A stretch of 63,910 nt of DNA, counting the filler, from Lenisia limosa (taxonomy: Eukaryota; Protista; Breviatea), in the NCBI GenBank assembly GCA_001655205.1. It is 12 parts of 12 records of this genome, joined end to end, with 100 filler letters (N's around TTAATTAATTAA, not from the genome) between each part and the next. Parts side by side here need not be neighbours in the genome. Positions count along the whole stretch, not along the records: positions 1 to 19,642 come from LPNZ01001185.1; positions 19,743 to 31,819 come from LPNZ01011285.1; positions 31,920 to 40,254 come from LPNZ01006984.1; positions 40,355 to 45,678 come from LPNZ01007189.1; positions 45,779 to 48,379 come from LPNZ01005268.1; positions 48,480 to 51,451 come from LPNZ01007720.1; positions 51,552 to 54,320 come from LPNZ01004248.1; positions 54,421 to 56,174 come from LPNZ01007036.1; 4 more parts are not named here. One strand, 5' to 3'. Under the pieces are notes generated by a model. That model ran no database searches and was not told the origin of the DNA. It saw only the letters and a list, made by a program, of their open reading frames with translations. Within the stretch, counting starts at the first letter, position 1. The number at the start of each line of letters is the position of its first letter. A program made the translations under genes and the position numbers. Of this stretch, positions 1,861 through 60,515 are shown one piece after another.

Positions 1861-4800
1861 ATGGAAACTGGAACATCATACTGGCATCTTCTTGGCTCTG
1901 CTTCGACTTTTTTTGATAATATGTTTTATAATTTTGGGTCTTCACAACTGGTGGGATCAAGATATGACAACCATGACAGTGAGGGGTGGGATCAAGATAT
2001 GACAAGTTGGTTTTTTATTGGCAAAATAATGCAGTTATTTATTGTTAAAATAATCTTAACTCACATCAGAATTTTTACTTTACCCATCAAGGTTTCCTGT
2101 TGGGGTCTGTGAAATGCAAGGAAAACGAAATCATATGGAAGACGCACTTACAATAAAGGGCTCTTTTCTTGGAGATACAAAATCTGATTACTTCGCCATT
2201 TATGATGGACATGGTGGAACTGAAGTTGCAAAATTTTTATCAACTGCATTACATGCTCTTTTAGCAGATCGACTTCATGCTGGAAACACACCTGAGCTTG
2301 CATTAGAATCAGTTTGCTTTTGATACTTTTATTCCTTTTTTACGTTAATAAGTCATCCTAGCATGGTATTGAAAGACTACTATAGATGGATTGAAGGGGT
2401 TGAATTTTCTGAAATATTTGTTCACTTTGTGGGTATCAATTTTTTGAAAAACAATTAATTTCGGATGCAAAAAATAATAATACCTGACTCAGGGGGTTGT
2501 TCCTATTTGATATGAGAAGGTGGGGACCGAAAGCCTCAAGATTAGAGGTTCTGAGATATTCTTAATGCGGGAGTCCAATTAAATTTTTGCAATATAGTTT
2601 TTAAGATTTGGGGCCTGGGGTGGACAAATGTATAATTGTGAGTTTAATCGTTTCCGTGAGAATATTAGCTGAATTCCTTTATAAGGCACAGTAATGTCTC
2701 TGTTTTACACCACTTTGTGAAATCATCATCTAAATTAGAATATAGCACTTTCTATGGGTGATTTTAGACTTGAAAACTATACGATTTGACTAATATTTCA
2801 GGAAAAGTCAATACTAAAGTATTAAAGTTGTCCAATTCTCTTGGAGTTGACTCAGAAAAGTGCATATTTCTTCATTTAAAAATGTATTTAGGCGATGGAA
2901 GGGGGAAGAAGAAGCCTTAGGATGAGGAGGTAGGATTTTGGCTCAGAGAATTTGAGGTTTATGGTCTTCATACAAATTCTCAGACAAATTAGCGATATTC
3001 TTTGAGTGTAATGAAGATTATACTAATAATAGCGAAGAGAGGGTTCATAAAGGTTCAGGAAGCTCAAACTCACAAATATTTTTACTGGATGCAGTCTTTC
3101 TTAAGTTTTTTGGGCTTGGTAGATGTATAATTACTTGCCTAAGATGAAGTAAGCTCTTTGAATCAGATATTCTCTTGAAATTATCAACACATTGGGCGTC
3201 TGCTCTAAGCCAAAAACCTGTGCGCCCGCTACCCTTTCAGTCCCCACCTCCTCGGTTTGACATTTTGGGTTTCGCTTTTAGACCTTTTTAGGTTCTAAAC
3301 ATGATATTTGAGGAATTTAAATAATTAGTAACAACACACAACCAACACAACTGCCGCATTGTCTATTTGTTTCAGTTTTGGCCTAATGCCTCGGATAATC
3401 ACATTTCAGGTCATTTAAAACCATTTTTAGAATATTACATATCAGTGCTGTTTTCTACAAAAAAACTGCCTCATACATCAGAGGAAGCACTTATTTTTAT
3501 ACATTATATTGAGTATAGTGGACCTTTTTTTTATATAGATTGAAACCTGTTTGCAACCAGTCAATTTATATATACAAATTTAAAGGTTCATATAACTACT
3601 TAGAAGTTGTATTATATACATATATTATAACTAAGATTCTTCCTAAGTGCGTACTGAGATGATACAATGAAAGCGGGAGTATGGGTGATTTTAAATTTGA
3701 AAACTATACGACCAATATTTCAGGAAAAGTTAATACCAAGAAAACGACAAAATATTAATTTTCCAATTCTCTTCAAGTTGACTCAGACAAGTGCATATTT
3801 CTTGCAATGTTCCATGGAATTGCGGGCAAAATTCCAAAAAACATTGTTTTCGCAGTTTCAGCAGACTCCCGCTTCAAGTGCGTACTCTGATGTATAACGT
3901 ACTCCGATGTATTTCCCCAAAAAAACTACCCGCTGAATTAAGAGTCATTTTGATTACTTTCCACACTTTTTTTATTTTTGGCGAAATCGAAAAAGGACTG
4001 AACCACCTTAAATGGCAAATTTCTGATTAACTGTCCTTAATGGTGAAGATAGGTATTAATATTTCTTGTTGTTATCAACCCTTGTGTGTTGTTAGCTCAC
4101 AGAGTTGATTTGGGTTTTGTTTTTGTTTCATAAATTTTCCAATTTTACTCCCCACCCCCCCTCCCCTAGGATATGAGCGGAAATGGCTCCTTTAGTCGAA
4201 CAGAGCTGATTTCATCAAACTTATCGACGATAGGAGGGTAGGATTGTGGTTCTGAGTTGGTTTACTATCCAGAGCGATCCATCTCCGGGCAGTGCTGCCT
4301 TCCGCAACGCCGTGTCTGATCATCCCACTTGCCTTGTACCTCCCAGCTAACCATGGCCTTGTGTCCATCGTGTCTGTTCGAGCGTATGTGGCTGATGCTT
4401 ACTACATAACAAGTTCACCAGCATTAGCATCATCACATCATCAGAATCTTCATCATTTTATTAAATATTATAATATTTGACAATATGGTCGTTTTGAAAA
4501 TATATGACGCATTTCCTGAAAAATTAGACGGTTCCCAAAATCTGTGGGGCATATGGTGGAGTGGTTTTAAAAAAACAATACTATTTAAGGATGTTCAGAG
4601 GACGAAGAAGGCTTGATGACGAGGATTAGGTATGGGTGGACTCTAGCTTACAATGCAGCATTTGGTCGCTGATAGGTTTGTTTCGGTATCAGTTCTTAAG
4701 AGCCTAATGAAGACTAGGTTTCTTGGTATATTCTTGAACAGTGTTATCATGCAAATACAGTGTAATGAACACCAAACAAAATACACATCTCACCTTCCTC

Positions 4801-6417
4801 CTTAAAGCGTCCGTTAGAATGATGTCTGGAGCTTTAAAGAACCACATATCTCCGGTCCTTAATTAAGTCATTAAAGTGGGCCAAAAGCAAAGGTGCTTTT
4901 TTGGATTTTCCTCAATATTAGCAATTCTAATAATAAAAAAAAAAAACACAATTTTCAGAGGGTCCTATAGTTTCTCTCTCAAAAAGACCGCTGAGAAGGG
5001 AAAAGGGAGGGACATACTGGCTTCGTTATATTATTCTTGCTGAGCTGTTGACGGAGGGGAACGCAGCAGGGTGGAATAGCGAGATAATGTTTCTGTGATT
5101 GAAATATCACATTAACTTCAAGGTGACCTGGGGGGTCCGTGCTGACTATGGGCCAGTTGGATGCTTTCCCTCTTGGCTTCTTCTTGATACCTTCGTTGCT
5201 TAGATACATTTGTAATAAAAAGCGCTCTCTTCCTGAAAGGGGCGAGTTGTGTATCGTCTAGATCTTTGGAAAGTTGATGCCACAGCTGTGTTCTACTGGC
5301 TCTTCGCCTTCAGCTTGCTGTGTGCAGATTTTTCTCTTCTATCCAGTAGTTGATTCCATATTTCTTCTTCTTCTTCAAGCATGTTTCGTCAGTAATGAAG
5401 TCCCAATGGCCCTGCATGTAGATCTCATGTTTCAATTACCAAAATTCTCTAATCCACAGCTGTTAATTTCTGTTAAAATGTCGGGCTTTTTATCTCGAGC
5501 CTAGTTACGCTATTTTACAATACGATTCGACCATTTTAAGGGTTTTGGGGGTCTGGCTTTCTGTTTCTGAAGTCATTCGAAATTTTAAAGAGCCATCGTC
5601 CCAGGGAAAGAGAACTCAAAATCATGCGTCATCGCTCTACCTCTCGATTGATGAGAACTAGCTTTTGCTTTTCACACATCGTATCTTTAAATAAACACTA
5701 CCCGTCACCCAAGTAGCTGAATGTTGCTTTTATAAAAAGCCTAACTCTTTTAGGCGACTCTTCTCACATGTATGGTATTAAAAAATAAAAAAATGGGGTT
5801 TTCTTGCGGTTCAACAGCAGTTGAAATATTGTTTTTATTTGGCATCTCTTTTAATGATTGATGATAATATGTACTTTTCGAATACAGGGGATGCTCGCTC
5901 AGTAATATCAAGGCAAAAAAAGGCATTCAGGTATGTTTCAATCCAAAACTGTTATCATGACTTCCTCTTTTTCTTTTTTTAGATGCTCATATGATCATAA
6001 GCCAACAAATATTGAGGAAGAACAAAGAATAAAAGTTGTTTTTAAGTTCTTACCTTTGATGCTGGGCGGATTTGTCACCGAGGAAGGAAGAGTGAATGGT
6101 ATTCTTGCAGTTTCAAGGTCAATTGGGGACTTCATGCTTTCCCCTTATGTATGTCCTGAACCCTATATTAATACAATGGTGAAAACAAACGACGATGAAT
6201 TTGTTATAATTGCATGTGATGGTTTGTCTTTTTCTTAATTGAAAGGAGTTTGGGATGTCATGAGCGATCAACAAGCAGTCGATATTGTTCATTCTGTTGA
6301 TGATCCTGCATTAGTTTATTCTGTTATTGACACTTGGCTGCTTTAAAATTGAGGGATATTGCCTATTCATATGGTTCTATGGATAATATTACTGCAATGG
6401 TAATTAAGTTTAAATAG
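1861..6417 (+). CDS. Protein phosphatase 2C (PPM family), multi-exon; 5' end uncertain
   Basis: Spliced translation contains EMQGKRNHMED, FAIYDGHGG, CGSTA, NTGDAR, DHKP, RVNGILAVSRSIGD, IACDGVWDV and GSMDNIT, all diagnostic PP2C motifs in order. Stop TAG at 6415-6417. Introns 2312-5753 (approximate model), 5931-5982 and 6222-6245 are GT-AG; three others are GT-TG. Confidence 0.9.
4067..4169 (+). repeat. Acceptor-associated repeat (family B) copy
   Basis: TTGTTATCAACCCTTGTGTGTTGTTAGCTCACAGAGTTGATTTGGG...GTTTCATAAATTTTCCAATTTTACTCCC...CTAG; same consensus as the other copies. Confidence 0.8.
5450..5660. repeat. Partial copy of the ~1 kb foldback element
   Basis: ATCTCGAGCCTAGTTACGCTATTTT...AGGGTTTTGGGGGTCTGGCTTTCTGTTTCTGAAGTCATT matches 11430-11530. 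Confidence 0.75.
5820..5841 (+). other. Predicted 22-nt non-canonical GT...TG intron in PP2C
   Basis: GTTGAAATATTGTTTTTATTTG. Removal joins GSTA to ASLLMIDDNMYFSNTGD, with 13 residues between GSTA and N as in the PP2C consensus. Retention causes a frameshift and stop. Confidence 0.7.
6035..6058 (+). other. Predicted 24-nt GT...TG intron in PP2C
   Basis: GTTGTTTTTAAGTTCTTACCTTTG. Removal gives RI-KML-GGFV, matching the RI-xxx-GG consensus. Retention is in frame (8 extra residues), so this is the weakest of the three. Confidence 0.55.
6314..6336 (+). other. Predicted 23-nt GT...TG intron in PP2C
   Basis: GTTTATTCTGTTATTGACACTTG. Removal gives DP-AL-AA-LK-LRDIA. The downstream frame has TGA at 6328-6330 and there is no AG between it and the exon, so I found no GT-AG solution in frame. 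Confidence 0.75.
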
Positions 6418-9169: not shown

Positions 9170-10140
9170 TAAGGAAAGTATGTTTCTCAGATGATTAATG
9201 TGGATTACCATTAAATTTTTCAAGAAATGCTGAACCAAACTCATCCACACAGGACTATTAACGACATCGTCCCCGAAATTGAGTCTCTCCACATCCAGCA
9301 GGTTCTCTCTACTATCTTTCGTGCCATCGGTCAGGCCCGGTGACGCCAACATCTCTGCCATCGGTGCACTTATCGAGGAAGGCTTTGCCTCCCAGGCCGA
9401 TCGACGCCGCACTCCCTTTACAGCAACCACGCCTCACACCCACATCCCGCAGCACTTGCCACTCAAACCCCATCGGGTTGATCACAAAAATAAAAGAAGA
9501 CGGGTCGATTAAGAACCACATCATTCTAGATGGGAGCTAACAGTTCGAAGCTTCATTGATAAAATAAGGAGCAGCCTCAATAAAGGTTGGTGACTGTTCG
9601 GAGGCGATCTTTCAGACACTTTCTATCTCATAACCATTGCATACAATGAGAAGCATATTTGCCATTTCAAGAAAATGCCTATGGGTTTTAGGAATTCATC
9701 AGCTCAGTTTAACCTCCTATCCCAAGCAATTAAGACCATCTGGCACCATAGAATAATGTCAGGATGGCTCTTCAACCAGCAGGACTACGACAGCAATATC
9801 AAGAAACTCTCTGATTTAGAAGAAGCAGTAATCAAACAATTGGTTAAAAACCATCACAACTTGTTGTTCATCTACATGTACCTAGACGACGCTGCAGCCA
9901 CAATCACCATTGCACGTTACTGCCTGTTAACACTAATCTGCATCTTCAACAACTACACGATTCAATACGCACCAAAAAAGCTGCATCTCCCAGTCACACG
10001 CTCTACTCACATGGTATCACCCTAGCTAGATACCATGAAAATGACCGCCAAATCTTTCCTCCGTACTATAAATGACACCCTCACTAAGGGAACAGCAACA
10101 AGGAAGGAAGGACAATCCATCATTGAAAGTTAGTTTGGGC
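9170..10140 (+). mobile_element. Decayed reverse transcriptase, DIRS/Ngaro (tyrosine-recombinase retroelement)-like
   Basis: Across stops and frameshifts: PIGLITKIKEDGSIKNHIILD, GDLSDTFYLITI, KKMPMGFRNSSAQFN, YMYLDD, then LDTMKMTA. This is RT motif order; the LDT..M.A tail resembles DIRS-class RTs. Confidence 0.75.
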
Positions 10141-10889: not shown

Positions 10890-11910
10890 ATATCATATGC
10901 TTCCGAAACTAAACCCGATTTTTTATAACTTTTGAAACAGTTGCCCTCTTACAACGTGAATGAACATCATCAAAAACCATTGGAAATATGAAATAATAAC
11001 CAAATGTATAATTTTACACAAACTCCAGGACATTTAGCACTCTGGGCCGGGCGCCCGGGAAAATTTTTTTCAAAAATTAGGACTAAATCTTACTACTGTT
11101 GTCATTTTGCGATGTTCTTATATTTGGAATTAAGTTTGAGGAAGTTTCATAACTTCTGCGATATTATTTTGATCTGGGACCTTGTTTAATTGGGAAAACA
11201 GGGTTAAACAAGTCGAAAAAACGGTCGTTTCTCATCAAATAGCGCTGTAAAACTTCGAATGACTTTAAAAACAGAAAGACAGACCCCCAAAACCCTCAAA
11301 ATGGTCGAATCGGATTTTGAAATAGCGTAAGTAGGCTCAAGATAATAAGCCTGACATTGTCACTGAAATTAGCAACTGTGGAACACTCGAGACTTTTGGT
11401 AATGTCAATCAAAAAGACAGGATTTATATCTCGAGCCTACTAACGCTATTTTAAAATCCGATTTGACCATTTTCAGGGTTTTGGGGGTCTGTCTTTCTGT
11501 TTCTGACGTCATTAGAAGTTTTAAAGGGCTGTACGATGAGAAATGACCGTTTTTTCGACTTTTTCAGCCCTGTTTTCCCAATTAGGCAAGTATCAAACTT
11601 TCTGGAACATTTAGGTCCCAAATCAAATCAAAAAAATATCGCAAAAATTATGCGACTTCCGCAAACTTAATTCCAAATCTAAGAACATCGCAAAATGACA
11701 ACAGTAGCAAGATTTAGTCCTGTTTTGAAGAAAATATGCCCGGGCGCCCGGCCCGGAGTGCCAAATTTCCTGGAATTTGTGTGAAATTTTACATTTGGTT
11801 ATTATTTCATATTTCCAATGGTTTTTAATGATGTTCACGTTGTAAGAGAGCAACTGTTCAAAAAGTTAAAATCGGGTAAAATCGGGTTTAGTGTCGGAAA
11901 CATATATGCA
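10890..11910. mobile_element. ~1 kb palindromic foldback element
   Basis: The left arm (AAACCCGATTTTTATAACTTTTGAAACAGTTG...GGCCGGGCGCCCGGG...) is the reverse complement of the right arm almost to the centre (~11390). Partial copies lie at 5450-5660 and 12023-12150. Confidence 0.85.
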
Positions 11911-12429: not shown

Positions 12430-13510
12430 AATTATTTGAGCCGTGTTGGGCTGGGGTGATTGCGGGTTTGGCCCTCGGGGTCAGTGATGCCTTCTCGGCT
12501 GAGAATTAGCGAGGGCTTTGGATGCCGAAAGGATGTACGCTAAGTGTAGCGTGGAGGCTATCTTTAGGAGGCAGTAGAGGTCTCTGATCCATTCATCAAT
12601 AACAAGCTTGTCCTTGACGCCAAATCTAGCATCGCCGCGGTTCCACCTGACAATCAATTAAAAGTATAATGTTATCACGGAGAGGGAAATGCCTTTTTTG
12701 AAAGCCGCATTGAAGTTGAAGAGGTATGCATCAATCTTTTATTGGGGGAGGCTTGCGTTCATTGATATAGTGTCAAGGAGAACACCAAGACAATGGATGT
12801 CCTTGTGGGGGCGACAACCTTACACCGATGCTGAACTCTCTCCAGGTGATGAGAAGAGTGGCGAGTATGTACTTGGCCATGAGTTCGGTCTTTGCGGCAC
12901 TGAAAACATTGGCGAAGTAAATGAAGATGACGCAATCGTGAGACCAAGACTGGAGGTTGGATTGGAGTGCTTGCCGTTAGTGTTGAGAAATGCCGTGATG
13001 CTTGAGATCGTAGTCACCATTTAGGATGTGACCGTTCATGATACGGAGCTTGACTATCACACAATTTGAATATCACACAATTTGACATGAACGTTTATAT
13101 AACAACGACATTTCAATGACACATACGTACACGATAATTCAACATACTGTATATTGATATGAGAAAAATATAATACCGACATACTTCTTTTTGTTGGAAG
13201 AGATGGGCGCCAGAACCGGGGAGGCCGCGAAGAAGGGCTGGCCTCGAGAGAGTAGTCAACGGAGGGTGCGGTATCGATCTTGTTAGCTGCTTGTGAAACG
13301 AAACCTTCCTTGATGAGGCAGAGATGTTGGCGTCACCGAGGGTGGGGGCCTGGTTGAGGGCGCGAAAGATTGTCGACAAGACCTGTTGGATATGGAGGGA
13401 CTCGAAGAATGTCGTTGATAGTCCTGTGTGGATGAGTTTGGTTTACCCGGTTTCTTGAAAAAAATTAAGGATCATCCACACTAATCATCTGAGAAACATA
13501 TCTTCCTTAA
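12430..13510 (-). mobile_element. Second decayed copy of the same RT element, internally deleted
   Basis: 13110-13510 is the reverse complement of a diverged 9170-9480. It then reads RIMNGHILNGDYD...VIFIYFANVFSAAKTELMAKYILATLL...KVVAPTR...LDTISMNASLP, homologous to copy 1, with YLDD decayed to YFAN. Confidence 0.7.
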
Positions 13511-19741: not shown

Positions 19742-19860
19742 NGGGGGGGGGGGGGTAAAATTGAAAAATTATGAAACAAAAAAAGTCCAAACTCGGCTGA
19801 CAACACACGAGGGTTGATAACAACAAAGCAAACAAAGCCCAGGCCAGTCGTTTCTGCAGA
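19742..19860 (-). repeat. Family B repeat forming most of a minus-strand intron
   Basis: Reverse complement reads TGCAGAAACGACTGGCCTGGGCTTTGTTTGCTTTGTTGTTATCAACCCTCGTGTGTTGTCAGCC...TTTCATAATTTTTCAATTTTACCCCC. Confidence 0.85.
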
Positions 19861-19879: not shown

Positions 19880-20600
19880 ACCGTCAAATCCACCATGATG
19901 TTGCGTGAAGCCAGAAATGAGGACTTTGAGCCAATCTCACCAGTAGAAGTGGCCGACTTGAGGGCATGGAGGTATGTGGCCTTCAGGGCCCGGGGGTAGG
20001 TCATCATTGACAGACCGCCACTGAGCAGCGCGTGTTGCTGCAGGAAGCCCTCGTATTCGCTGACATTATCAATTGGTAAAATAGCAGTACAATGCAATAC
20101 ACATAATTGAATAGAATATGTAGTAAGATAAAAATTTACAGTTTGATACAATGAAGAACAAATAACAAGAATAAAATACAACATACTGCAATATAATACC
20201 CACTGTTCTAATTTCCAAAGGATAGCCCCCCCCCCACCTTTCTGCTAACAGAGGCGCGTCATGACAGGCCTTAGCAACATGGCCAATGATGGCAGGAGAT
20301 AGGCCTGGTGGTGAGAACAGGGAAAAAATTTAATTTGCAGAAAAGTCTCTATTGAAACTAGGATCATAGAGATCCTTTTTTAAAAAAAAGGGGGGAAATG
20401 GACACTGTGCACACTCCTTTGACTGGACATATGACCCCATTGCACCAACCTTGGGGGGTCCTCAACACGATGCTAGGGAGAAGAGCCCTGCACGCGGCCG
20501 CGGTAGAGGCGTATCTACCCTTGGTCACAGCCTGCGTCTTCGGAGAAAGAAGACCACTCTTCGTCAGGGATGCCATGGCCGTTGCTGGGAGGTCAAAATG
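19880..20600 (-). CDS. Multi-exon gene fragment, unknown function
   Basis: GC-rich exons (ASLTKSGLLSPKTQAV...; GLSPAIIGHVAKACHDAPLL; EYEGFLQQHALLSGGLSMMTYP...) bounded by GT/AG. Confidence 0.45.
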
Positions 20601-22689: not shown

Positions 22690-25600
22690 GAACAATGTTT
22701 TCAGTTCGGTCCGGCTCGGAGCAAGGTTCGAGGAAGGAGGCGAAGAAGTCACTTTCAGCCAGCCATTGACTGTAGATGGCTGAGGGGGGTGTGAGAAGAT
22801 GGGAGAGAATTAATCGAATTCAACATCCTTTTACAAACTCAACCATCCTTTTATAACCTCAGCATTCTTTTATAAACGAGAGCTCAGACCCGAGCCTTAA
22901 CAAAGCAACTCAGTTAAAACAGACTGGATGATATGATGATGATGGGTGGGGGGGAAAAAACATATGATATATCGATATAATACATATGTATAGGGCTGAG
23001 GTTTGTAATAATGAGAGAGAAGACTCAAGGTATGCCCCCCCTCCTCCCCCAATACAATGGAGTTGTAAAAGGCTGTGTGTACATGAGACAAACTCAGAAT
23101 ACGGGCCTGTAATGGACCAAATTCCAGTTCCGGCTGCAGGAGCTGACGTGTCTCCCTAATACGGTAAGTAAGCCGTTTCTCCCTCATATAGCAAGTAAGC
23201 CGTTTCACCCTAATATGGTAAGTTAGCTGTTTCACCCTAATATGTTAAGTTCGCTGTTTCTCCCAAAATTGGTAGAAGCCTAACAACCAATTTCTCTCCT
23301 CAGTGAAGCCCCCTCCCCCACCATTCCAGCGTAAAGATGATGGTCATCGCATCCCTCTTTGATCCACTCCAAAGCCGCTGTGAACGTCTCCACCAACTCC
23401 TCGCGAATGTCATCGTTTTCTGAAGGGTCAAAGAGCGAATGTCATCGTTTTCTGAAGGGCCAAGGAGTTGATAAGGGTCAAGGAGTTGATAAGGGTCCAT
23501 CCCGGTTGAAAAATGTAGAAAACCAAAGTACATTGAAGAAGTGCAGAGCGTACACACAACGGCAGAATAATCCCAAGTGAAAAAAGTTGTTATAAGTAAG
23601 AGTGATGTATCTTAAGGAAATACCGGAATTTATCTGAATATTGTGAATAGATCCGCATCTGGGTGGCTCAACTGAAGAGAAATATGATAACGTAACCGCC
23701 CCACCATCAATATCAGTCATGCTCTTGATAGCTGCAGCTACGAGCATCATTCTGCAGGCCAGCACAGGGTGGACAGAGTCGTTAGCAGCCTCTTGGCGGA
23801 ATAGGGCGACTAGGTTGGCCTGGCTCGCCATTTCAGCTCCAAATGCTGATGGGTGAGTGGTTGAATTGAAGGGCTGTAAGAGATGAGAGAGTGGTTGGAA
23901 TGAAGGGCTGTAAGAGATGAGAGAGTGGTTGGAATGAAGGGCTGTAAGATGGGGGCACATATTAATCTTGCTTCTGAGAAAAAACATAGAGTCGGCAAAA
24001 TACTTGAAAGCCAAGCAACTCTGCATACTATACATGATAGACAAAGGAAGATGATATATTTATCACAAAGATAGTCCTTTCTGATACTGGAAATGGTCCA
24101 TAAAACTTGTANNNNNNNNNNNNNNNNNNNNNNNNNNNNNNNNNNNNNNNNNNNNNNNNNNNNNNNNNNNNNNNNNNNNNNNNNNNNNNNNNNNNNNNNN
24201 NNNNNNNNNNNNNNNNNNNNNNNNNNNNNNNNNNNNNNNNNNNNNNNNNNNNNNNNNNNNNNNNNNNNNGGTCATGCGGTGGCGTCCACTGTCCGTCAGG
24301 AGCCCGGTCATGCACAGGGACCACCGGCAAGCTGTTGGGTTATGCGCTGCGGGATAGAGGAAATGCGCTGGTGTTCTTGTATAAAGTCTCTGTTGAAACT
24401 GGATCAGAGAGATGGTTTTTTTCGTTAGAAGAAGAAGACTAATGTGATAGTCCCGTGCTGTATGTATTCATCAAGACCCCCCCCCCCCNNNNNNNNNNNN
24501 NNNNNNNNNNNNNNNNNNNNNNNNNNNNNNNNNNNNNNNNNNNNNNNNNNNNNNNNNNNNNNCTGCCGCTGAGAGCTTGTTGTTGATTCGCGCTATTGGG
24601 TGAGAGTAAAACGAAAGAAATTTCTTGTACAAAGATTCTCCATTTCTAACTTTTAATATAATATTCATCTTTTCTTGTTCAAAAAAAGATGAAGAATATT
24701 GGCGTAAAGGTACTTATCACGAGCCGAATAATCAAACAAACAAACAAAAAAAAAAGCAATAACAAACAGTAAAATACAGTTGTTTGAATTAATAGACAGA
24801 GAGAGAAACAAACCCTGAGTGGCAAGATGGGGGAATATTGAGAAGTGGCTGACCCAAGAAAACAACGGCTTTTTTTTATTGGAGAATTCCTGTAAGAGGC
24901 CATTCACTTCGGTTCGAAAAAAGACTGAATTTCTTCGAAAATTATGGATATTTTACTTGTATTTTTCGAACCAAAGTGAAGACTTAGTCATACTCACCCA
25001 GAGTGGACTCGGCTGACGCCAAAAACGCTTCCTCAGGCTTCATCAGGAAGGATACCTGAAACATGAAGGGGGAGGGTTGATTACGAGGGGGTGTGGTATA
25101 AGGGTGGACAAAGAAAATTCGATGACGTAGAATGAAGGAGGGAGTAATGGCACTAATGAAAAATACAAATACAACTAACGATTAAACAATCCTGGGTTAT
25201 CATAAACTATCTCAATGAGTTGAGTATGATATGCAATTGGACAAAACAAGCATCGGAAGAAACTCTATCCACCGCCAACCTGCGAAGGGCTGAAAGGAAG
25301 GGGAGCCTTGTCCATAGTGGTCTTGGCAGTGTATTTGTTGTCGTTGAAGCCGACACATGTGGTGTACATTCCAATAAACTCATTGCTCAATTCCTACAAG
25401 AGTTATGCCAGCTTTTCACGAAACAAGGGGGAGGGGGAGTTTTGAAGTTGCAGTTAAAATATGTTCATTTGATAAGTGAGGTTTGCGTATGAAAAATAAG
25501 GATACTTTCACTGAAACATATTAATCCATTGTTTTTGAAAGGATGACATGTCCCACTGGTCATAGCTGTCATAACAAACCTGGATAGGCGTCTTGTTGGA

Positions 25601-30800: not shown

Positions 30801-31777
30801 CTTTTCTAAATGGGTCGTCCGTTTTTAGCTGTAATGATGGTGAAATGCTGCAAAATGAGGCGGATATTCCAGATATATGGAAGCGACGAAGCATTCTTTG
30901 AATCTTCGGTTCACATACCGTATTCAAATCATATACATTAAAGTTAGATAGCCCAACACCCTTGATACTATAGGCTTCGAGGCGATATTAACATTCTGCT
31001 TGTCGGTGACCCTGGTACTGCCAAATCCCAGTTCCTGAAATACGTGGAGAAGGTGGGGGGTAGATTAGGGTTCATAAAATGCAAGTTTATCTGTAATAAT
31101 CTTCCAATCTATCTCGCTATTCTTTTAATGACTGGACCCCTCACATACGCTGGAGTGATGGGATTCGATGCTGCAGAAGCGACCGGCCTGAGCTTTGTTG
31201 TTATCAACCCTTGTGTGTTNNNNNNNNNNNNNNNNNNNNNNNNNNNNNNNNNNNNNNNNNNNNNNNNNNNNNNNNNNNNNNNNNNNNNNNNNNNNNNNNN
31301 NNNNNNNNNNNNNNNNNNNNNNNNNNNNNNNNNNNNNNNNNNNNNNNCCGTGGGGGGGGGGGGTATCTGCATATTTTACGCGGTACATAAAGCAGTCTCT
31401 TACCTTGACTTTCTTCTCATACTGCAGAATCTGGAGAGTTCTACCTTGAGGGAGGAGCAATGGTTCTTGCGGACGGCGGCGTGGTGTGTGTTGATGGTGG
31501 GAAGGGGGTCTGATTATCCTCTAAGTAGGGCTTCCCTACGGTCCCAAAAAAAGACGGATTTTCTCGAGAAATCCGATAAATATCAATATTTTACCGGGTT
31601 TTGGACCGTAGGTAACCTTTAAGCCCTATTCTAATGCACCCTTTTTCATAGATGCTAACTTTGATTTGGATTTTTTTTTTTGTTTCATAAATTATCCAAT
31701 TTCACCCCTCACCCTCAGAGTTTGATAAAATGCGTGAACAGGATCGAGTGGCTATCCATGAGGCTATGGAGCAGCAG
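27802..31777 (+). CDS. MCM5: DNA replication licensing factor MCM5, 3' partial
   Basis: Exons encode [83 protein letters not shown]|[20 protein letters not shown] (MCM5-type). All readable introns are GT-AG. Truncated at the scaffold end. Confidence 0.9.
31150..31219 (+). repeat. Family B repeat in an MCM5 intron (cut by a gap)
   Basis: GTGATGGGATTCGATGCTGCAGAAGCGACCGGCCTGAGCTTTGTTGTTATCAACCCTTGTGTGTT. Confidence 0.8.
31660..31718 (+). repeat. Degenerate family B 3' end forming an MCM5 acceptor
   Basis: TTGATTTGGATTTTT...GTTTCATAAATTATCCAATTTCACCCC...CAG followed by the exon (E)FDKMRE. Confidence 0.7.
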
Positions 31778-31919
31778 GTATGGGAGGAGGCTATGGAGCA
31801 GCAGGTATGGGAGGAGGCTNNNNNNNNNNNNNNNNNNNNNNNNNNNNNNNNNNNNNNNNNNNNTTAATTAATTAANNNNNNNNNNNNNNNNNNNNNNNNN
31901 NNNNNNNNNNNNNNNNNNN

Positions 31920-32065
31920 GGAGAGGGGGGCTGGGGGAGTGAAATTGGAAACTTTATAAAATAAACAGAGCCAAAATCAACTCTGGTGGCTAGAAACACA
32001 CGAGGGTTGATAATAACGAAACAAATGCCAGGTCAGTCGCTTCTACAGCACCGCATCACTCCAGC
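31920..32065 (-). repeat. Family B repeat, near full length
   Basis: Reverse complement matches the consensus from GGAGTGATGCGGTGCTGTAGAAGCGACTG to CCAATTTCACTCCCCC. Confidence 0.8.
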
Positions 32066-33074
32066 GGACGTGAAAATGGAAAACTGAACGAAACAGATAA
32101 ACCAGAAAAAAACCATCAAACATCGCCATCAACCCCCCCCCCCCNNNNNNNNNNNNNNNNNNNNNNNNNNNNNNNNNNNNNNNNNNNNNNNNNNNNNNNN
32201 NNNNNNNNNNNNNNNNNNNNNNNNNNNNNNNNNNNNNNNNNNNNNNNAAAACCATCAGTTGTGAAAAAGGATGTGGGGGAGGGAAATTGTGACGGTGATG
32301 AAGGGGGAAGGAGAGATACCTATGGTATATGTACATAAACTAATCGCGATAAGTCTTGACACGGATAATGAGATTTATCTTTAGTCAATCATGTAAGGAC
32401 TTATCACAGTCACTGTATATATATACTAAATTTCATTGAATTAGCTGAGTAATAGTGGCTGAACAGTGAAAGAGAAGAAACTCCAAAGCCAGTATATGGA
32501 AGGAGGGAAAATTAACAGTATCAAACAAAAGCCGTCCATATCACGTTGATGATCAAAAGCAATTTTTATTATTCTCAGAGCAGAATTCCCAAAACGATTA
32601 GAGCTATAGATACATGTAAATATATTTCCGCACCACCACGCTTTGAGGAAATTTTGGATTAGAGTATAACTAATCCCAATTTATTGTCTTATAATTCGGC
32701 TTACACAGCTTTCTACTTGCCTCCCCAAAAATTAAGAAATACTTCACCATATACAACCAAAGCTTTCCATTATGTTAATAAACGGTATTACCGATATGAA
32801 GGTAATACTTGTCGCAAAGATTAACTGAGAACTTTCAGTATCCACATTTCACCTACATATGAAACAACACATGTGATATAACATTGTATCTTAACCCCCC
32901 CCCCTCATTCATAAATCCCCCAATATCATTTCAATTAGCCTCATTTGGCACCTTCTCTGGTATCAAAGTCATCGAACTCGTTTCGTTCCACACACTACTC
33001 AAAAAAAACAGTTTATCTCAACTCTCTTAAAACATTTCCGAAAATGGTCCTTAGCTGGCTTAAACACCCTCAAA

Positions 33075-33231: not shown

Positions 33232-34019
33232 TGTTGGCTTAAACAAGCCTGGAAGAAGTGAAGAAGGAAAAAAGTTACTCTCCTTTTGAAGGAATCGTAT
33301 ATCAAAGCAGCTAGAATCAATAGTATGGCACAGTTCAATGTGATAACCGCCTACAAACTGCAAAACTGGGCTATATGACGCTGAGTGTAGGACTAATACG
33401 ACTTTCGCAATTTGTTTCTCTTAAATTGCACCAATTTTTGGCTTTCTACTGCCAAAAAACAACACTAAAAACCACAGCTTGAAAAAAGAGCTCAAATTTG
33501 AAAAGTTTGGATTTTATGCAAACGTACGTGGGGGAGTAGACAATCACATTAACAACTGAAAGGAATTGTGAGCAATGTTCGAGCTCTCTTACAAAACCAT
33601 AATCTCCATACACACACGTAAACTTGAAGCACACCCGGCTACTTGCCTTACACAGCTGGTGGGGGGGGGGGGCTTNNNNNNNNNNNNNNNNNNNNNNNNN
33701 NNNNNNNNNNNNNNNNNNNNNNNNNNNNNNNNNNNNNNNNNTGCGTGTTTCTCCAGTATATGTAATTTGTGTATGTGGCTTGTGGCAATATGATATATTA
33801 GTTCGCATATTAGTTAACATGTTAGTATAGGCAATATTTGAAGTGATATTCAGAGTTCCACACTGATGTTGGATTTTTGTAATATTAATTCACCAATATG
33901 TTGCCTCATAACTCCATAGGCGGGTATAGATTAGTAATGTAATATCTCATTGATTTCGGGCTTTTTTTCTTTTGTTTCATAAATGCCCCAATTTACCCCG
34001 AACATAATCCTGTTCAGGT

Positions 34020-43400: not shown

Positions 43401-45678
43401 TTATTGTTTTACAACTCTAATTTGTAAACAAACGCTCAATGGTTTTTTTTTTATCTGGGAATGATAATGGTGGCCCCCCTCGCCAACAGTTTGAATAGCA
43501 ACCCAATATCGCCGCCTTGCGAGCAGCACGAACGTGAGAAGGTGGAGGAGGTACGAGAAGTCGAGGAAAGCGCTTCGCCGGGTGACGGCCAATATAGCCA
43601 AGGGGATAACTGTACTGGTCAAGAGGGGAAATGTTATTATGATGTCAGTTGCTGTGAAAGGAAGCAAGGAAAGTATGTGTCGCTGTATTTGGATATAACA
43701 ACGGGGTGGTGGATTAACTAGTTTGCATTTTCGAAAAAAAACCCGTTATAATAAATCTCTCACATATAGCATTGAAAGTAAGCGACATTGCCGCACCCGC
43801 AGCTAGGGTCCACCATGAGGCTTGGAAACACTCCAATGAAGGCTCAGCCGTGAGCCAAAAGGACCCGTCCGACTGTTCGGTGCACTGCGGGAGTGAGTGA
43901 CACACACACACACACACACACACACANNNNNNNNNNNNNNNNNNNNNNNNNNNNNNNNNNNNNNNNNATTTTTGTGACTGAGAAAAAAACTTGACTGAGG
44001 CCCAAATTGAGGGATGAGGGTGATGTATGTGAGGGAAAAGAGGAAGAGGGAAGGGTGAAATGACCAATATCATTTCATACTAATTGTAAATACTATTTTA
44101 AAAACTCTTACACCACAACCCACATTGAAGATTTGTGCGGCGAGAAAACTGGAATAAGGTGCGGATGCCACCAGCAAGCACGCGCAAATTGACGCCACAC
44201 TTGCTCCAACAGTGGTTTGGAGATCAGCAGCGATTGATGGGTCAACCCAATCCGCCTCAGCATAGTTCATGAGCAGACGTCCAGCCGCCTCCATGGGTGC
44301 TTGGCTGATGCTGCTACCGAGGCGCGCCGTCATGCCGATTTTGGGCTGAATCATGAGGAACTTCAGGGTCTGAGTTGTAGCATGTTTATTTTTCAAGGAA
44401 TCACAGTGTGTATATCTTAATTCAAAAAAATAAAGGATGAAGAAGAGGATACAAACCAAAGACGACAAAGTCAACAACCTACCTCTGGAGAGGGCGGGAG
44501 TGCTTCAGTCGAGGCTGCTGGCGAGGCAAAGTGGATGATTTGCCATGTCAGGGTTGGAAGTTGTTCGTGTGGTGGTAAGGGGGTCTCGAAGATACGACTG
44601 CGTCCATTATTCAGGCAATATAATGAACTATATGCACATAATAGATCGGTCAAGGGATTAAAAAAGTGCAAGCTACAACAAATGAGAAAAGAAAAATCAT
44701 TGGACTGGTTCCCCCTACCCATGAATCCAGATGTAGAAGCGAACAGCCAAATGCATTGCTACCGCAATAAGCCCCAAAATGATAGGGTGCAAGAAAGCGA
44801 GCACACGTGCGGTCATAAAGTCGAGCTGGTGTGTGAGAAATGAGGGCTGGTAGCATAAGTCATAGGATTAAGTATTATTCTATTGGAGTCAAGAGCAAGA
44901 CAAGCAAAATGTCCTGTTTTGGGGACATTATTTTCAACAGCGTATTTCCAAAGAAAAAAAAAGACAGCAGAAAGCGTACTCCAAAATCGCAGGGAAGCAG
45001 TGAGTGGGGAAGGCGGACGAGAACCAGGTCCATAATGGGCGAGATGCCATGCCAAACTGCCTCTGGATGTACCACTGATACCACTGAACGTATTAGACTA
45101 TTCACGCTATTGCTCCCCCCCCCCCCCCCNNNNNNNNNNNNNNNNNNNNNNNNNNNNNNNNNNNNNNNNNNNNNNNNNNNNNNNNNNNNNNNNNNNNNNN
45201 NNNNNNNNNNNNNNAACGGCGTGGGAAACCTAAAAGGAGGAGTAAAAAATGGGACCTTTCTTATGAGACGCAAAACCTTTTTTAGAGAGATCACTGAAAA
45301 AGTTGGCGCCATGCGAGCGAAAATTGACAATTTATGAAACAATAAACTCAGTTGGCTTGATATTTGAGATCCTAAGCCTACCATTGCAAGGCCCAAAATG
45401 ACGGAAGCAGCCACGGCCACTGTGCGGCCGACAGCCACGTCAGCACATTCGGAACAGATCCCGTCGGTTCGGAAACAGCTGTTTGATCAGAGAAAGGGGG
45501 TGATCCGATATCTGGGAGAAAAGAGGAGTTTATATTTAATAACGGGGAGATGAAAAGCTAGTGATCCACTACCAATTATTAATATGCACAATTACAGGAC
45601 AACATAAAGGCCGCCCGCGCACTTATCAGCGCACTGTCTGCACGCGAATCCGTCATAATACGGGGCACATTGCCGGGA
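40420..45678 (-). CDS. Cys-rich extracellular plus multi-TM receptor/TRP-like membrane protein, partial
   Basis: QCAPYYDGFACRQCADKC and CSEC precede TM1. Later CTEQSDGSFWLTAEPSLECFQASWW resembles the C...dg...L...P...C...w loop of protist multi-TM proteins. Several hydrophobic exons and a long S/P-rich exon (41260-41876). Confidence 0.6.
43057..43147. mobile_element. hAT-like MITE copy
   Basis: TTGGGCTTCACTTCGGTTCG...GAACTGAAGTGAAGCCCTA. Confidence 0.75.
43899..43926. repeat. (CA)n microsatellite at a gap edge
   Basis: Direct observation. Confidence 0.9.
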
Positions 45679-51551: not shown

Positions 51552-53510
51552 GAACCATCTATTCCTAGTCTCCCTGTTAACAGCACTAAGTAGCAAGACG
51601 CGGTGGCCGTCCTGCAGGATTTTGAACGCATTTGCACGGTAATTCGTGGCCTCCTCGATTGTCATGTTCTCGTAGGGATACTCGTTTTTGGCAGCTTTGC
51701 TTTGTGACGATCTATGATCGTGAGATGGAATTTCCCTCTTCAGACAATTACGGCTTCACTATGGTCCGAAAACGACAGTCAAAATATCGATAATTATGGG
51801 AAAGTTTTTTTTTGTACTGTAAAGAAGCCCTTGATATAATACTGTTCAGATTATACCCATCCTAGGTAATTGATTCAACCAATATACATTTCTCATCTTT
51901 ACCAATTTAACACCCCATCTGATATAAATAATACCGTCACCCCCCCCCCCCNNNNNNNNNNNNNNNNNNNNNNNNNNNNNNNNNNNNNNNNNNNNNNNNN
52001 NNNNNNNNNNNNNNNNNNNNNNNNNNNNNNNNNNNNNNNNNNNNNNNNNNNNNNNNNNNNNNNNNNNNNNNNNNNNNNNNNNAAACATTAGAAGCAAATC
52101 AAAACGCAAATATTTCGAAAAATGAATAAAGGTGAAAGAGTGCCATATTTCGAAATGTCTTGTACCATATTTTCGAACAATGAACACTAAAGGTGCAAGA
52201 GTGCCAATTGAGTGCATTTGTTCTTCTCCTACTGCGACATTATCCCTCCTTTATCTCCTCCCCCACCTAGGGCTTCACTTTGGCTCGAAAGACTAAATTT
52301 ATCGATAAATCCTCGAAAACTATCAATATTTGTCTGAATTTTTTCGAACCGAAGTGAGAGCACAATCCTCCCCCCTCACCCCTCCTTAAAGGACTTTCTC
52401 ACCTCTCCTTAAAGGACTTTCTCACCTCTCCTTAAAGGACTTTCTCACCCCTCCTTAAAGGACTTTCTCACCTCTCCTTAAAGGGCTTTCTCACCCCTCC
52501 TTAAAGGGCTTTCTCACCTCTCCTTAAAGGGCTTTCTCATGGAGCTTTCCTGCCCCCCNNNNNNNNNNNNNNNNNNNNNNNNNNNNNNNNNNNNNNNNNN
52601 NNNNNNNNNNNNNNNNNNNNNNNNNNNNNNNNNNNNNNNNTTTGAGGCTCGGCGGTAACCACTCAGTGCTGAGGTACTACGGGGAAGTCAGGTTGAGGAG
52701 GGGAGAGTAAAATGGGGAAATTAATGAAACAAAGATTAGCACATACAAGAATGCTGTGTACCTCCTCCACACCCATGAAATAATAGCGATGCAAAGGAAG
52801 CCTCCCCAACCTGCTGATGCGCATTTTGAACCTCCGAATGGTCGATATGGCCTCCCCAGATCCTGGAAAATAAAAGACCGAAAATCTGAAGGATTGGGTA
52901 TTTGTTGTTGGTTTTTTGTAAGACAAAAGTAAAAGGGGGGGATGGACAATGAAAAATCCTCCTATAAATCCTCGATAAATCCTCGATAAATCCACAAGAA
53001 ACTGACTATCACCCCCCCCCCCTTATAAGCCTCTTATTCAAACTATTCAAGCTCTACTACCCACCCGGTGAGTCTATTCAAGCTCTACTCCACCCACCCT
53101 GTGAGTCTATTCAAGCTCTACTCCACCCACCCGGTGAGTCTGTTTTTGAGGCTGTTCAAGGCGGCTTCCACAGCGTCTATCGCCTCAATCGCATCCACTG
53201 GGTTGACTAGGTGCAGCTTTTGGACCGAGTCTGAGGGGGGGGGGTAAAATTGGAAACTTTATGAAACAAAAAAGCCCATAATCAACTCTGTTGGCTAACA
53301 ACACACGAAGGTTGATAACAACAGAACAAACAAAGCCCAGGCTAGTTGCTTTTGCAGCACCGCATTCCCATCACTGAAGAGCAAAGTGAAGTGAAAACAA
53401 CACCTCTTCACAATGAGGTCAATGTAACTTCCCTAATCAGCTTCAAATACACCTCGCAAACTTTTGATGTCTTTTGAGAAGACTCCGACTTCGGCTGAAG
53501 TGGTCATGTG
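51552..53510 (-). CDS. Fragmentary gene with a PH-like C-terminal exon
   Basis: AFKILQDGHRVLLLSAVNRETRNRW resembles a PH-domain end. Upstream helical exon SVQKLHLVNPVDAIEAIDAVEAALNSLK. Confidence 0.35.
52381..52540. repeat. Minisatellite, 23-bp unit x7
   Basis: CTCCTTAAAGG(A/G)CTTTCTCACC(T/C) repeated. Confidence 0.9.
53231..53375 (-). repeat. Family B repeat, full length, ending at an AG acceptor
   Basis: Reverse complement GTGATGGGAATGCGGTGCTGCAAAAGCAAC...TTTCATAAAGTTTCCAATTTTACCCCCCCCCCTCAG followed by an open exon. Confidence 0.85.
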
Positions 53511-54420: not shown

Positions 54421-56174
54421 ACCCGGTGACATAGCCAGGCCAATTGAAGCTAAATAGTCAATAAAAAGTGAACTAAATGATATATATAGTGATACTCACT
54501 TATGATATATCAACAACGTGAACAATATACAAGCCATTAATATATGACATTCATTTTCTGCATACTGTATCTAATTCTGTTTATTTTGTACCAGATAATA
54601 TTTGTACAGTGCTAATAATAAATCTAGAAAATAGGGAGATCTATCCAAAGCTGACCAACCCCAACCGCTCACCAATTCCGCCAAGAGGCTTGGTTAGAGC
54701 CACGGCATTAGCAAGGGCATTGCCACCCAAGGTGTCAAAGACATAGTCGTATGTGGCCCTGTGGTGAGGGAAAAATGAACGGTGGAGGGGGGGGGGGGGT
54801 ANNNNNNNNNNNNNNNNNNNNNNNNNNNNNNNNNNNNNNNNNNNNNNNNNNNNNNNNNNNNNNNNNNNNNNNNNNNNNNNNNNNNNNNNNNNNNNNNNAA
54901 AACTACTGGAAAAGTGAGAAAAATCCCTACTCAAGTGTTTTCTTATAGGAAAAATAGGACAACGTTAAATGGTAATGGAATGTGTGATGGTGTAGCGTGG
55001 GTAAGGTGGGATTGCGTTATGATATCTTCAAATTATGATGCAGATAATAATCGCAATCACTACAGTGGATTCTATTTTGGTCAAAGACTTGGGCTTCACT
55101 TCGGTTCGAAAAAAGACTGAATTTCTCGACAAAATTTCGAAAACTATCGATATTTTACCGGTATTTTTCGAACCGAAGTGAAGCCCTACCTAAGACCCTC
55201 CACACAGACGCTTACTTAAGGAGGGGCCTGGTAACGGGTTGTGAGATTTCAGCCGCATCAACTGGGGTTGCTCCAAGCTAGGGAGGGGGGAGGGTAAATT
55301 GGAAAATTTATGAAATAAAAATCCAACTTTGTTGGCTGTCAGCACACGAGGGTTGATAACAACANNNNNNNNNNNNNNNNNNNNNNNNNNNNNNNNNNNN
55401 NNNNNNNNNNNNNNNNNNNNNNNNNNNNNNNNNNNNNNNNNNNNNNNNNNNNNNGGTTTTTAAGGACAATGAGAATAATGAGCAATACGTGTCAATTTTC
55501 CGTCTTAACAAGAGTAATTATAAATTTGTATCGCTTCCCCCATGGTCAAAAATGACCTGTAAAGTATCCCATTCTAGACTATATTCAGCCAACCGATTTG
55601 AGAAGGTCACCCTCGGTTTGAGGGTAGCGTGTCAGTCCATCCACATCAGCACCTTGGTCACTCAATATCCTGGGAACGGTGTGTAAAGACGGAAGATATA
55701 TGAAGTATAAAACCCCAAGATCAACTCTGTTGGCTAAACAGTTCCGAAACACACGAGGGTTGTGAAAGGGGAAAATATCAATTTCAAAAAACACCACAAA
55801 CACAAACACTTGAATAGATACCCCCTACTTGCAGAGAACAGTGCCCACTCCTCCGGCAGCACCAGTCACAAGCACCTTCTTGTTCTTCAGATCAGCGGTG
55901 TTGTTCTTCGTCATTATCTGGAATGTTATTCAGAAATTGGGATATCATTCATAATCAGGACTCACTGTGCTGATGATGATTACAGCTTAGACTCTCCTGA
56001 TTCATCTCCAATACTCCTAATTTACCTAATTCCTCTCCAATATTCAACCCACAAATAGAACTACTATAACAAACCATGATTGCCTGTGCTGCAGTAAATC
56101 CGGGAGCGCCGTGTTGCATACTTTGGTAAGGCGAGAGGGCGGACGGCAACGCAACGAGGTTCTGAGAATGGGCC
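54421..56174 (-). CDS. MDR-family NADPH:quinone oxidoreductase, YhdH/AcuI-like, partial
   Basis: Spliced: LPSALSPYQSMQHGAPGFTAAQAIM...KVLVTGAAGGVGTVLCK|ILSDQGADVDGL...KS|LGATPVD...YDYVFDTLGGNALANAVALTKPLGGI|ASIGLA. Splice phases are consistent. Confidence 0.8.
55089..55188. mobile_element. hAT-like MITE (100 bp)
   Basis: Near-perfect TIRs; flanks TCAAAGAC / CCTAAGAC (6 of 8 identical). Confidence 0.8.
55278..55345 (-). repeat. Family B repeat ending at an oxidoreductase acceptor
   Basis: Reverse complement ...TTTCATAAATTTTCCAATTTACCCTCCCCCCTCCCTAG followed by exon LGATPVD. Confidence 0.85.
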
Positions 56175-56274: not shown

Positions 56275-56385
56275 GGGTAAAATTGACAAATTTTTGAAAC
56301 ACAAGGAAAAAAATCAACTCTGTTGACTGATAATACAAGAGGGTTGAAAATATAAAACAAACAAAGCCTGAAACACCGCATCCAA
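56275..56385 (-). repeat. Family B repeat in a helicase intron
   Basis: Matches the consensus on the minus strand; cut by the scaffold edge. Confidence 0.7.
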
Positions 56386-56459
56386 TCAGTCCAGTATGTA
56401 AAAGATATTTATTATTAATAAATAATAATAAAACAATAAAAATAAACTCTTTTGCCTTT

Positions 56460-58447: not shown

Positions 58448-58535
58448 CTGTGGGGGTAAAATCGGAAAATTATGAAAAAAAAGCCCAAATAAACTCTGTT
58501 GGCTGACAACACACAAGGGTGAATAACAACAAAAC
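58448..58535 (-). repeat. Family B repeat ending at a helicase acceptor
   Basis: Reverse complement ...TTTTCATAATTTTCCGATTTTACCCCCACAG followed by PMIIG...GDHKQLQP. Confidence 0.85.
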
Positions 58536-58779
58536 AAGTAAAATCGGAAAATTTATGAAATAAAATACTAANNNNNNNNNNNNNNNNNNNNNNNNNNNNN
58601 NNNNNNNNNNNNNNNTTAATTAATTAANNNNNNNNNNNNNNNNNNNNNNNNNNNNNNNNNNNNNNNNNNNNAAAAAACTATGAAACAAAAAAAGCCCAAA
58701 TCAACTCTGTTGACTGAGGAGGGATAATCCCACATACATAATTACAATTTTATTTCGCAATGAGAAATAAAAAAATAAG

Positions 58780-60515
58780 GTTGTGTCTGGCTGAAGCCTT
58801 AGTATGCCCTTTCCCCCCACCGAACATGGAAATTTGCCCAGTAATTTGACTCAAAATTCTTATCCCCTCACAATTAGCCTTGGGCTTGTCTTTAGCAGGA
58901 AGAGAGGGGATGACAATGGACGGGTACTTCTTGACAAGGCGCTGATGCAACACGGTAAAGTCTCCATAGCGACGGAAGACGGAGAGTGATGCCTCGCGGA
59001 ACTCGGGGAGCCTGGTCTGTACGGGGGTAAAAGGGAGGACCGTGCAGTTGCTCGTGTGGGGTGGTTGCTGCTATCTACAGGCTTTGTCTCTCTCTTTTAT
59101 TCCTAAATCAAAACAGTTTTACCCCCACCTTTGTTGACACTTTCCATCTGGTATAGCCTCCCTCCTCCTCCACAACTTCAGGGGAATCGACCTGAACAGA
59201 AATCTCCTCTTCGGTCTCGTCTGAATTGTAAGCGAAAAACAATCAAAGTCAAGCAAAGGGGTGGTGGGAGAGAGAGGGAAATACACCGCGTTGGAAAGAT
59301 GGGGTCAACATGTACTGCAACACTTTTTACTACCCCCCCCCCTAGGCCTTCACTAAAGTTCTAAAATGACCAGTAAAATATCGATAGTTTTCAACGACTA
59401 TCGAGAAATCCAGTCATTTTTCGAACCGCAGTGAAGCCTTACCCTCCCCCCCAAACCTTTCTGAGTCTCACACTGCTCAAGTTCGATTTGTTTGGCCCTC
59501 TCTTCAGCCAAAAGATTCCTTTCCTAAAGAGGTGAAGAAGAAAGGGGTGCGACACCTATAATACTATTATGGAGATGACGACAAGGTATAAGTTACAATA
59601 TTATGAACGGGCGTTTTGTGAATTCCTCTCGTATATTGTCTGATTCTTTTCCGTATAAACCCAAAGTAGTATTCTTATTATTCTTAGATTTTTCTTAGAT
59701 TGATTTCTTGATGAAGCACGGGTATTACACTTCAACTAGCATAGTCTATTTTGGGGTAGGAGAACGACAAAGGTATAAGTTACAATATTATGACAACGCA
59801 ACGATTTACCACCCGATCAAAACTACACCGCTCTCTCTCTTCAAAAGAATACTCCTCTCCCCCACCTCCACAGAAAAGAGACATCTTCAACATTTTTGTT
59901 TCACAAAAAAACACACAGACATCTTCAAAAGATACTCTCCCTCCCCCACCTCCACAAGGGCAGAAATCGCTTCCTGCCACTCGGTACATGCCTCCGCGCT
60001 TTCAGCGAACACCACGTATTTGCGTGAGGCTGCAAAGATGGCAAAACCAAACTCTCTNNNNNNNNNNNNNNNNNNNNNNNNNNNNNNNNNNNNNNNNNNN
60101 NNNNNNNNNNNNNNNNGGTCGAGTAAATTGAAAAATTTATAAAACATAAAAGAACAAATGTAAACGATGATGATGATGGTCAGGGTCGATTATACAAAAG
60201 TAGTAATACATCTACATACAGCAATATCCCCCCATCCCCCACACAAATTGCATACTCGATAGTAATACTCCTACACTGACCCACCCAGCCCACAAATTCC
60301 ACAGATTCGGTGTGAGTGACGCTGTGCATAGGAATCACGCCCTGAGGCTTGGTGTCCTATATAGGGGTAAGAGTGACGCTGATGGTGATGAAACACAACA
60401 ACAAAAAAAAAGTTGTAGCTCCGACCCATCCCACGTCTTTGCTCTGGAAGTAGGTGATCAGATCGGGCTGCAGAACCATGAAGCGCTGTTTGACTGACTT
60501 CACGCGACCGCCCTG
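58780..60515 (-). CDS. PH-domain plus PX-domain protein (sorting-nexin-like), partial
   Basis: PH: QGGRVKSVKQRFMVLQPDLITYFQSKD|DTKPQGVIPM...FAIFAASRKYVVFAESAEACTEWQEAI. PX: YTRWKVSTK|TRLPEFREASLSVFRRYGDFTVLHQRLVKKYPSIVIPSLPAK. Confidence 0.85.

Follow-up and report, generated by a model that had tools for sequence, protein, structure and literature searches.

How a short non-coding repeat comes to lie, in the direction of the host gene and mostly close to the 3' splice site, in introns of many unrelated genes is the question raised by a stretch of DNA from the breviate Lenisia limosa (GenBank assembly GCA_001655205.1). The stretch analysed (63,910 nucleotides (nt), hereafter the window) consists of 12 scaffolds joined by linkers, to which all window counts refer; its genes have many introns, short exons, G-rich donors and acceptors that are often C-rich. 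Two sequencing runs were used along with it, namely X1, one probable DNA run containing the window sequence, and X2, a poly(A) RNA run of the same study. The tallies of X1 contigs quoted below as 243, 140, 361, 115 and 78 cover the best-supported contigs only, with 348 and 142 others outside them.

The repeat was searched for with a profile built from the window copies, by which 16 pieces at 15 loci were matched; the same profile gave no match at E<0.2 in 11 controls, namely the window in reverse and 10 block-shuffled versions of it. The unit, which is non-coding, measures about 138 nt, and the copies are 77–95% identical to a consensus of eight copies. An open frame through the 5' half of the unit was dropped by eye, with indels between the copies. 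A first-pass annotation had listed the repeat at 13 places, all of which carry it, and three further pieces were added (at 45357 and 52733, plus a tandem one at 58565, all on the minus strand). In X1, the summed depth over one copy (copy I, see below) was 335,000–351,000, compared with 19–26 over its unique flanks; summed contig depth does not equal copy number and was not used as such. The 158-nt stretch around copy B was matched by 5,061 X1 contigs, with 854 overrunning its ends and 1,271 fitting partially. The X1 contig counts alone give at least about a thousand repeat loci, and thousands are likely. Exact scans with the repeat motifs found no matches in metagenome, prokaryote-genome and viral collections.

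The repeat is in sense to the host gene at all 14 loci where the host strand could be called (binomial p=1.2e-4), as had been claimed at first pass. The strand was called by Pfam at six loci (MCM5 twice and PX, and weakly dehydrogenase twice and PH), by RNA at two and by reading frame and donor by eye at six, the callers not being blind to the repeat. Among the host identities proposed earlier, MCM5 was confirmed, the oxidoreductase was matched only weakly (E 0.09–0.11) and neither Pfam nor PDB confirmed the helicase. Word-index protein searches with single exons gave no homologue.

The last conserved motif of the unit and the intron end are both visible at nine loci, and at eight of these they are separated by 8–30 nt (≤10 nt at one of the nine). 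The distance is 8 nt for copy M (58455..58538, minus strand, 5'-truncated) before the acceptor at 58448. It is 13 nt for copy D (31663..31707, plus strand, 3' part only) in the MCM5 intron 31497–31718, for copy I (53242..53375, minus strand, near full length) before the acceptor at 53231 and for copy K (55683..55762, minus strand, diverged and 5'-truncated) in the intron 55828–55670, and 16 nt for copy J (55293..55364, minus strand, with a gap in place of its 5' part) before the acceptor at 55278. A distance of 21 nt was found both for copy A (4066..4148, plus strand, 5'-truncated to unit positions 58–138) before the AG at 4169, where two flanking plus-strand PP2C pieces are a host candidate only, and for copy F (33950..33998, plus strand, 3' part only) before the AG at 34017, with a donor at 33659 called across a gap. 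Copy H (52707..52733, minus strand), a short 3' piece, lies 30 nt before the acceptor at 52677 and upstream of a separate branch motif; X2 RNA contigs include the neighbouring exon bins and skip its intron. The sole exception in position is copy G (45320..45357, minus strand), a partial copy in mid-intron, 24 nt after the donor and 89 nt before the acceptor. The intron of copy G ends in a stretch (45230–45320, minus strand) faintly resembling a second, much older copy, and if this is real, copy G is no exception.

Splicing at the AG behind copy I was observed in RNA: the exon directly after this copy (53130..53230, minus strand) is a spliced piece of an RNA contig (X2 record 7), the edge of which, at exactly 53230, fixes the acceptor at 53231. 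The acceptor behind copy D is supported by MCM5 homology, since positions 128 and 129 of the Pfam MCM profile meet at its intron; the exon directly after this copy (31719..31777, plus strand) belongs to MCM5. At six of the 15 loci the acceptor is out of sight, in a gap or past a scaffold edge. Copy B (19753..19859, minus strand, 5'-truncated to unit positions 26–140) lies 81 nt after the donor at 19940, and its C run reaches the scaffold edge. Copy C (31148..31219, plus strand), the 5' end of which is intact, is in an MCM5 intron with the donor at 31053, 95 nt upstream; its 3' part is inside an assembly gap, and by arithmetic the 128 nt of this gap barely hold what remains of the unit plus the exon that is missing, which leaves little spacer. 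Copy E (31939..32068, minus strand) is of full length with a C-rich tract extending to the scaffold edge, and copy L (56275..56394, minus strand), of full length with an internal deletion, ends at a scaffold edge. Copy N (58673..58717, minus strand) is 5'-truncated, its 3' end is cut by the scaffold edge and its host encodes a PX domain, and copy O (60125..60158, minus strand) is a diverged 3' piece with its acceptor within the next 59-nt gap and a host with a weak PH match. For the seven loci with a measurable upstream spacer, uniform placement was modestly rejected (combined p=0.018).

The first-pass annotation had described the repeat as ending at the 3' splice site. Nearness to the acceptor held at eight of the nine loci, but a straight run into the AG did not, a C-rich spacer of 8–30 nt, which differs from copy to copy, lying in between. 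Because copies are unlike one another in the stretch that leads up to the AG, the AG is probably not brought by the repeat. The suggestion of an acceptor-donating element was not borne out, on the same ground and because a separate branch motif at a host-normal distance is present in two of eight copies (D and H, 6 and 10 nt from the intron end, respectively). The broader claim, that the element is mobile and associated with the 3' splice site, was supported, with spread from intron RNA or by gene conversion as possible routes. The miniature inverted-repeat transposable elements (MITEs) of the window had been said not to share this positional bias; by eye, about 3–4 of the 16 matches of the commoner MITE lie ≤30 nt from an apparent acceptor, so that this family too occupies some such positions. 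As a separate observation, one copy of this MITE (24900–24985) fills most of an apparent minus-strand intron of about 110 nt, at about 10–15 nt from both splice sites (by eye).

With regard to splice signals, the last YTNAY of the unit itself is the motif nearest the AG in six of the eight near-acceptor copies, at 8–21 nt. An AG occurs in the unit for the last time at position 95 of 140, the final 45 nt containing none, and the reverse strand of the unit reads GT...AG from end to end. The branch A had earlier been proposed to lie in GTTTCATAA, which was not sustained: GTTTCATAA is mostly ≥30 nt from the intron end, compared with element-free MCM5 introns, in eight of nine of which YTNAY ends 7–10 nt before the intron end. 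The better branch-site candidate is the terminal TTTAC of the unit.

The two ends of the unit are unequally preserved, with the 3' end intact in all 14 visible copies and the 5' end in four of 14 (Fisher p=1.5e-4). Of the X1 contigs, 243 retain no more than the final ~39 nt, upstream of which nothing can be aligned, and 140 extend to the 5' part; the 5'-flank consensus of the latter has a sharp unit start after a T/C tract (agreement 0.53). One head-to-tail joint is present in the window, where the 3' end of a second copy (58538..58565, minus strand) is joined to copy M, and such joints recur in X1, where eight of the 15 among the rows listed go back to the copy's 3' end and the next start is full or truncated. 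The 5' flanks of the window copies are 66% pyrimidine, compared with 52% for the remainder of those introns (resampling p=0.0002), and a YTNAY motif lies within ≤20 nt in nine of 13 of them, compared with 39% (p=0.03). A C-rich or pyrimidine tract is present on both sides of the unit, yet none of 41 other G/C tracts, many of them at donors, carries the element. These 41 belong to 43 G-tract sites with visible downstream sequence, and at just two of these does a reversed element end follow, both being C tracts that belong to copies A and B.

Target-primed reverse transcription is recognised by 3' ends that are fixed and 5' ends that are ragged, along with tandems and a target of simple-repeat type. 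We hold with moderate confidence that the repeat is a non-autonomous retroelement which, using the enzyme of another element, enters the C-rich tract of existing acceptors by target-primed reverse transcription, is transcribed probably within host introns and is tolerated through its own branch motif; the mechanism and the family membership are what we infer from the anatomy of the copies. The template would be RNA, probably host intron RNA, because the T runs of the sense strand would stop RNA polymerase III. Priming would take place on the G-rich strand opposite the C tract, and copying would often halt early, which would result in the 5' truncation. Insertion would occur mostly between the host branch point and the AG, or just upstream of the branch point. 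The insertion would be tolerated because the unit closes with a motif resembling a branch point and its final 45 nt are free of AG, which would leave the AG of the host in use. Antisense copies, with a cryptic donor and acceptor, would be lost, or else the priming step would require the acceptor itself. Spread to thousands of sites by reverse transcription aimed at C-rich tracts is likely, and harmlessness by means of a spare branch point is likewise likely. A bolder form of this retroelement reading, which we regard as unlikely, makes the repeat a promoterless parasite of the 3' splice site: the spliced-out intron tail (repeat, C tract and AG) would pair with the matching strand of another acceptor and be reverse-transcribed into it, and the working branch point would have been replaced in thousands of introns. 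If so, sense orientation and acceptor targeting would follow from the mechanism and not from selection.

Several points weigh against the retroelement reading. Simple (C)n targeting predicts antisense copies at many G-rich donors, and since none of the 41 tracts is occupied, an extra step is needed. No target-site duplication is readable in the flanks of the window copies. The pyrimidine excess of the 5' flanks may include decayed element, and the truncation could equally reflect deletion after insertion with splicing retaining the 3' part; the summed X1 depth over the 5' half is not below that over the 3' half. For the 3' flanks, the X1 consensus consists of a run of C and then CAG-like letters, with an agreement of only 0.35–0.38 (361, 115 and 78 contigs), too blurred to tell acceptors from antisense donors, and X1, as the possible source of the window itself, is not independent evidence. 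A CTAAC upstream of truncated X1 copies, considered as the host branch point, was set aside as a possible blend with the CCAAC of the element. As to an autonomous partner, a Pfam scan of 71 window frames found no Penelope-like element (PLE) or long interspersed element (LINE) protein, and the single reverse-transcriptase-like piece is weak (E 0.035) and, by its motifs, looks to be of long terminal repeat (LTR)/DIRS type. This piece belongs to the regions 9594–10025 (plus strand) and 12484–13020 (minus strand), with two related stretches at 9234–9509 and 13116–13442; the sequence there resembles a tyrosine recombinase in its motifs, and these are possibly decayed DIRS/Ngaro-type elements.

An origin by DNA-level repair copying would dispense with the RNA step: breaks at fragile C/G tracts would anneal to the C tract of another acceptor and copy the sequence upstream of it, and the commonest sequence would amplify itself. 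It would account, without a partner element, for the strict sense orientation, the anchoring at the 3' end, the variability of the 5' end, the tandems and the missing duplications, and short tandem duplications across donors (31760–31819, 53043–53141 and 23147–23264) point to local templated copying at splice sites in this genome. We nevertheless consider it improbable, since such copying should yield many unrelated families and carry along upstream host intron, whereas the 5' flanks are unrelated, and since the sharp shared 5' start better fits a discrete unit; we know of no precedent at such a copy number. These duplications, with units of 22–84 nt spanning the exon end and the donor, were also seen by eye at about 59860–59950, 62330–62387 and 63669–63714; at 53043–53141 the RNA contig is spliced at the exon-proximal donor, and they are possibly a general way in which introns grow here. 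A decayed DNA transposon (of MITE or Helitron type), inserted widely and surviving only where splicing tolerates it, in sense just before the acceptor, is distinctly improbable. In its favour, the reverse strand with GT...AG would have antisense copies purged, the ends pair imperfectly in two of five copies folded, and rolling-circle elements also form tandems. The earlier proposal to look for inverted ends and duplications turned up no true ones in the window copies: the consensus ends share at best a 4-nt complement, short of what a MITE has. The hallmark of Helitrons is a 3' terminal CTRR just after a hairpin; the unit lacks a terminal CTRR, has CTRR only at positions 5, 38 and 43, and its hairpin is ~40 nt from the end. 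The loss of ends is also one-sided, whereas the true MITEs of this genome have retained both of their ends and are found close to donors too.

That the repeat is a true introner, having made these introns before their 5' parts were replaced or extended, is very improbable. Its place close to the intron end, the built-in branch motif and one X1 tandem joint with a copy starting in GT speak for this reading. The introner criterion is similarity within about 10 nt of both splice sites in the part of PMC9860276 drawn upon here, and for the 3' boundary the C-rich spacer may be counted either way. At the 5' side the unit starts 24–291 nt past the donor at all nine loci with a visible donor, the sequence in between being unrelated among copies, and the X1 5'-flank consensus is a T/C tract and not an exon. 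Because it begins so far inside the intron behind unrelated sequence, the repeat, judged on this layout, is not an introner and would not have created the introns, so that the introner-like label of the first-pass annotation was withdrawn. The age of the MCM5 introns, for which that annotation had proposed orthologue comparison, bears on the same point. Among 80 related MCM loci, seven have an intron in the region and the best-scoring ones are mostly intronless (73 of 80). The position of the copy D intron is matched in none of the 80, in line with recent origin by an introner, and that of the copy C intron is shared with one (L059), a weak sign of age. In L059, nine of 10 introns are in phase 0 at AG/G sites, and parallel gain of the shared position is therefore possible. 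Three element-free introns of the window MCM5 share positions with two other loci, one match being doubtful. The intron pattern of L059 in its own right suggests a recent intron invasion in that organism.

Least probable of all is a functional intron-encoded RNA family or splicing signal (like a small nucleolar RNA (snoRNA), or structured), although a central hairpin is possible in some copies and a box C-like motif (one mismatch) is present near the 5' end. The unit has no Rfam match, and no box D, sense-strand H box or hammerhead was found in it; the folding z-scores of the copies range from -2.4 to +0.6, the consensus fold is weak (-0.36 kcal/mol, with one of 10 pairs changed on both sides), and 10 of 14 copies are without the 5' end. 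The intron-encoded RNA family of the first-pass annotation was accordingly not retained. Searches of the unit with ARAGORN, Rfam and for a B box found nothing and several runs of T4 or longer are present, which speaks against a short interspersed element (SINE) derived from transfer RNA (tRNA) or 7SL. A tRNA-like head of the unit was considered by eye and dropped.

Among known systems the best likeness is to the non-autonomous Chlamys PLEs, and by this analogy the repeat may work most like them. In the sections of PMC8557442 used here, such elements (e.g. MRC1) are 5'-truncated and occur in head-to-tail arrays, and (C)n is the target of many Chlamys. The repeat has in common with them that its 5' end is often truncated, that copies are joined head to tail, that duplications are not discernible and that a hammerhead is lacking, and its C-rich flanks may correspond to the insertion at (C)n or (CA)n that marks this type. 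Membership would entail a 3' end shared with an autonomous element that encodes reverse transcriptase and a GIY-YIG endonuclease, and no such element was seen in the window. Confinement to acceptors, strict sense orientation and a built-in branch motif are features of the repeat that these sections do not describe for Chlamys. Non-LTR retrozymes, according to the portion of bioRxiv 10.64898/2026.07.22.740005 consulted, are likewise short, tandem-forming non-autonomous PLE derivatives, but they have hammerheads and are reportedly excluded from introns.

Introners, as the parts of PMC9860276 and PMC12130899 at hand present them, resemble the repeat as short non-autonomous repeats that occur in many unrelated genes and carry a splicing signal; they create the intron and span both boundaries, whereas the repeat covers the 3' part only, and introner pipelines by their design would discard it as a secondary insertion. 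Stwintrons, in the partial account available, are also placed inside a splicing element of another intron, but each of them is a complete intron, excised in a second round of splicing. In human and mouse, intronic transposons of all classes are depleted near exons and most near acceptors, as far as the excerpt of PMC3088655 goes, whereas the repeat is concentrated in this very zone; there too splicing selection acts on orientation, human SINEs close to exons being biased towards sense because of the cryptic acceptors of antisense Alus (same excerpt). A literature search for an acceptor-lodged element of this kind found no description, subscription journals being largely outside its scope.

Two other features of the window were noted. 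The AT-rich PP2C pieces (Pfam; 2060–2320 and 5906–6235, plus strand) have very short introns, some seemingly without AG, are unlike the other genes and may be a captured or decayed gene. Nested long inverted repeats at 10961–11837, with 195-nt and 115-nt arms, form a foldback-like element, to which a piece at 5453–5596 is related.

The stretch from branch point to AG is where insertions are ordinarily least tolerated, as far as the excerpted part of PMC3088655 shows, and a repeat family lodged there is unusual. Its copies, likely thousands, would exemplify a mobile element that makes a safe site of a splice signal by bringing along a substitute for it, and through the repeat branch points could be turned over on a mass scale with no introns gained. 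Were spliced-out intron RNA the template, the repeat would exemplify in nature the return of reverse-transcribed intron RNA to the genome, which has long been discussed as a step in the spread of introns.

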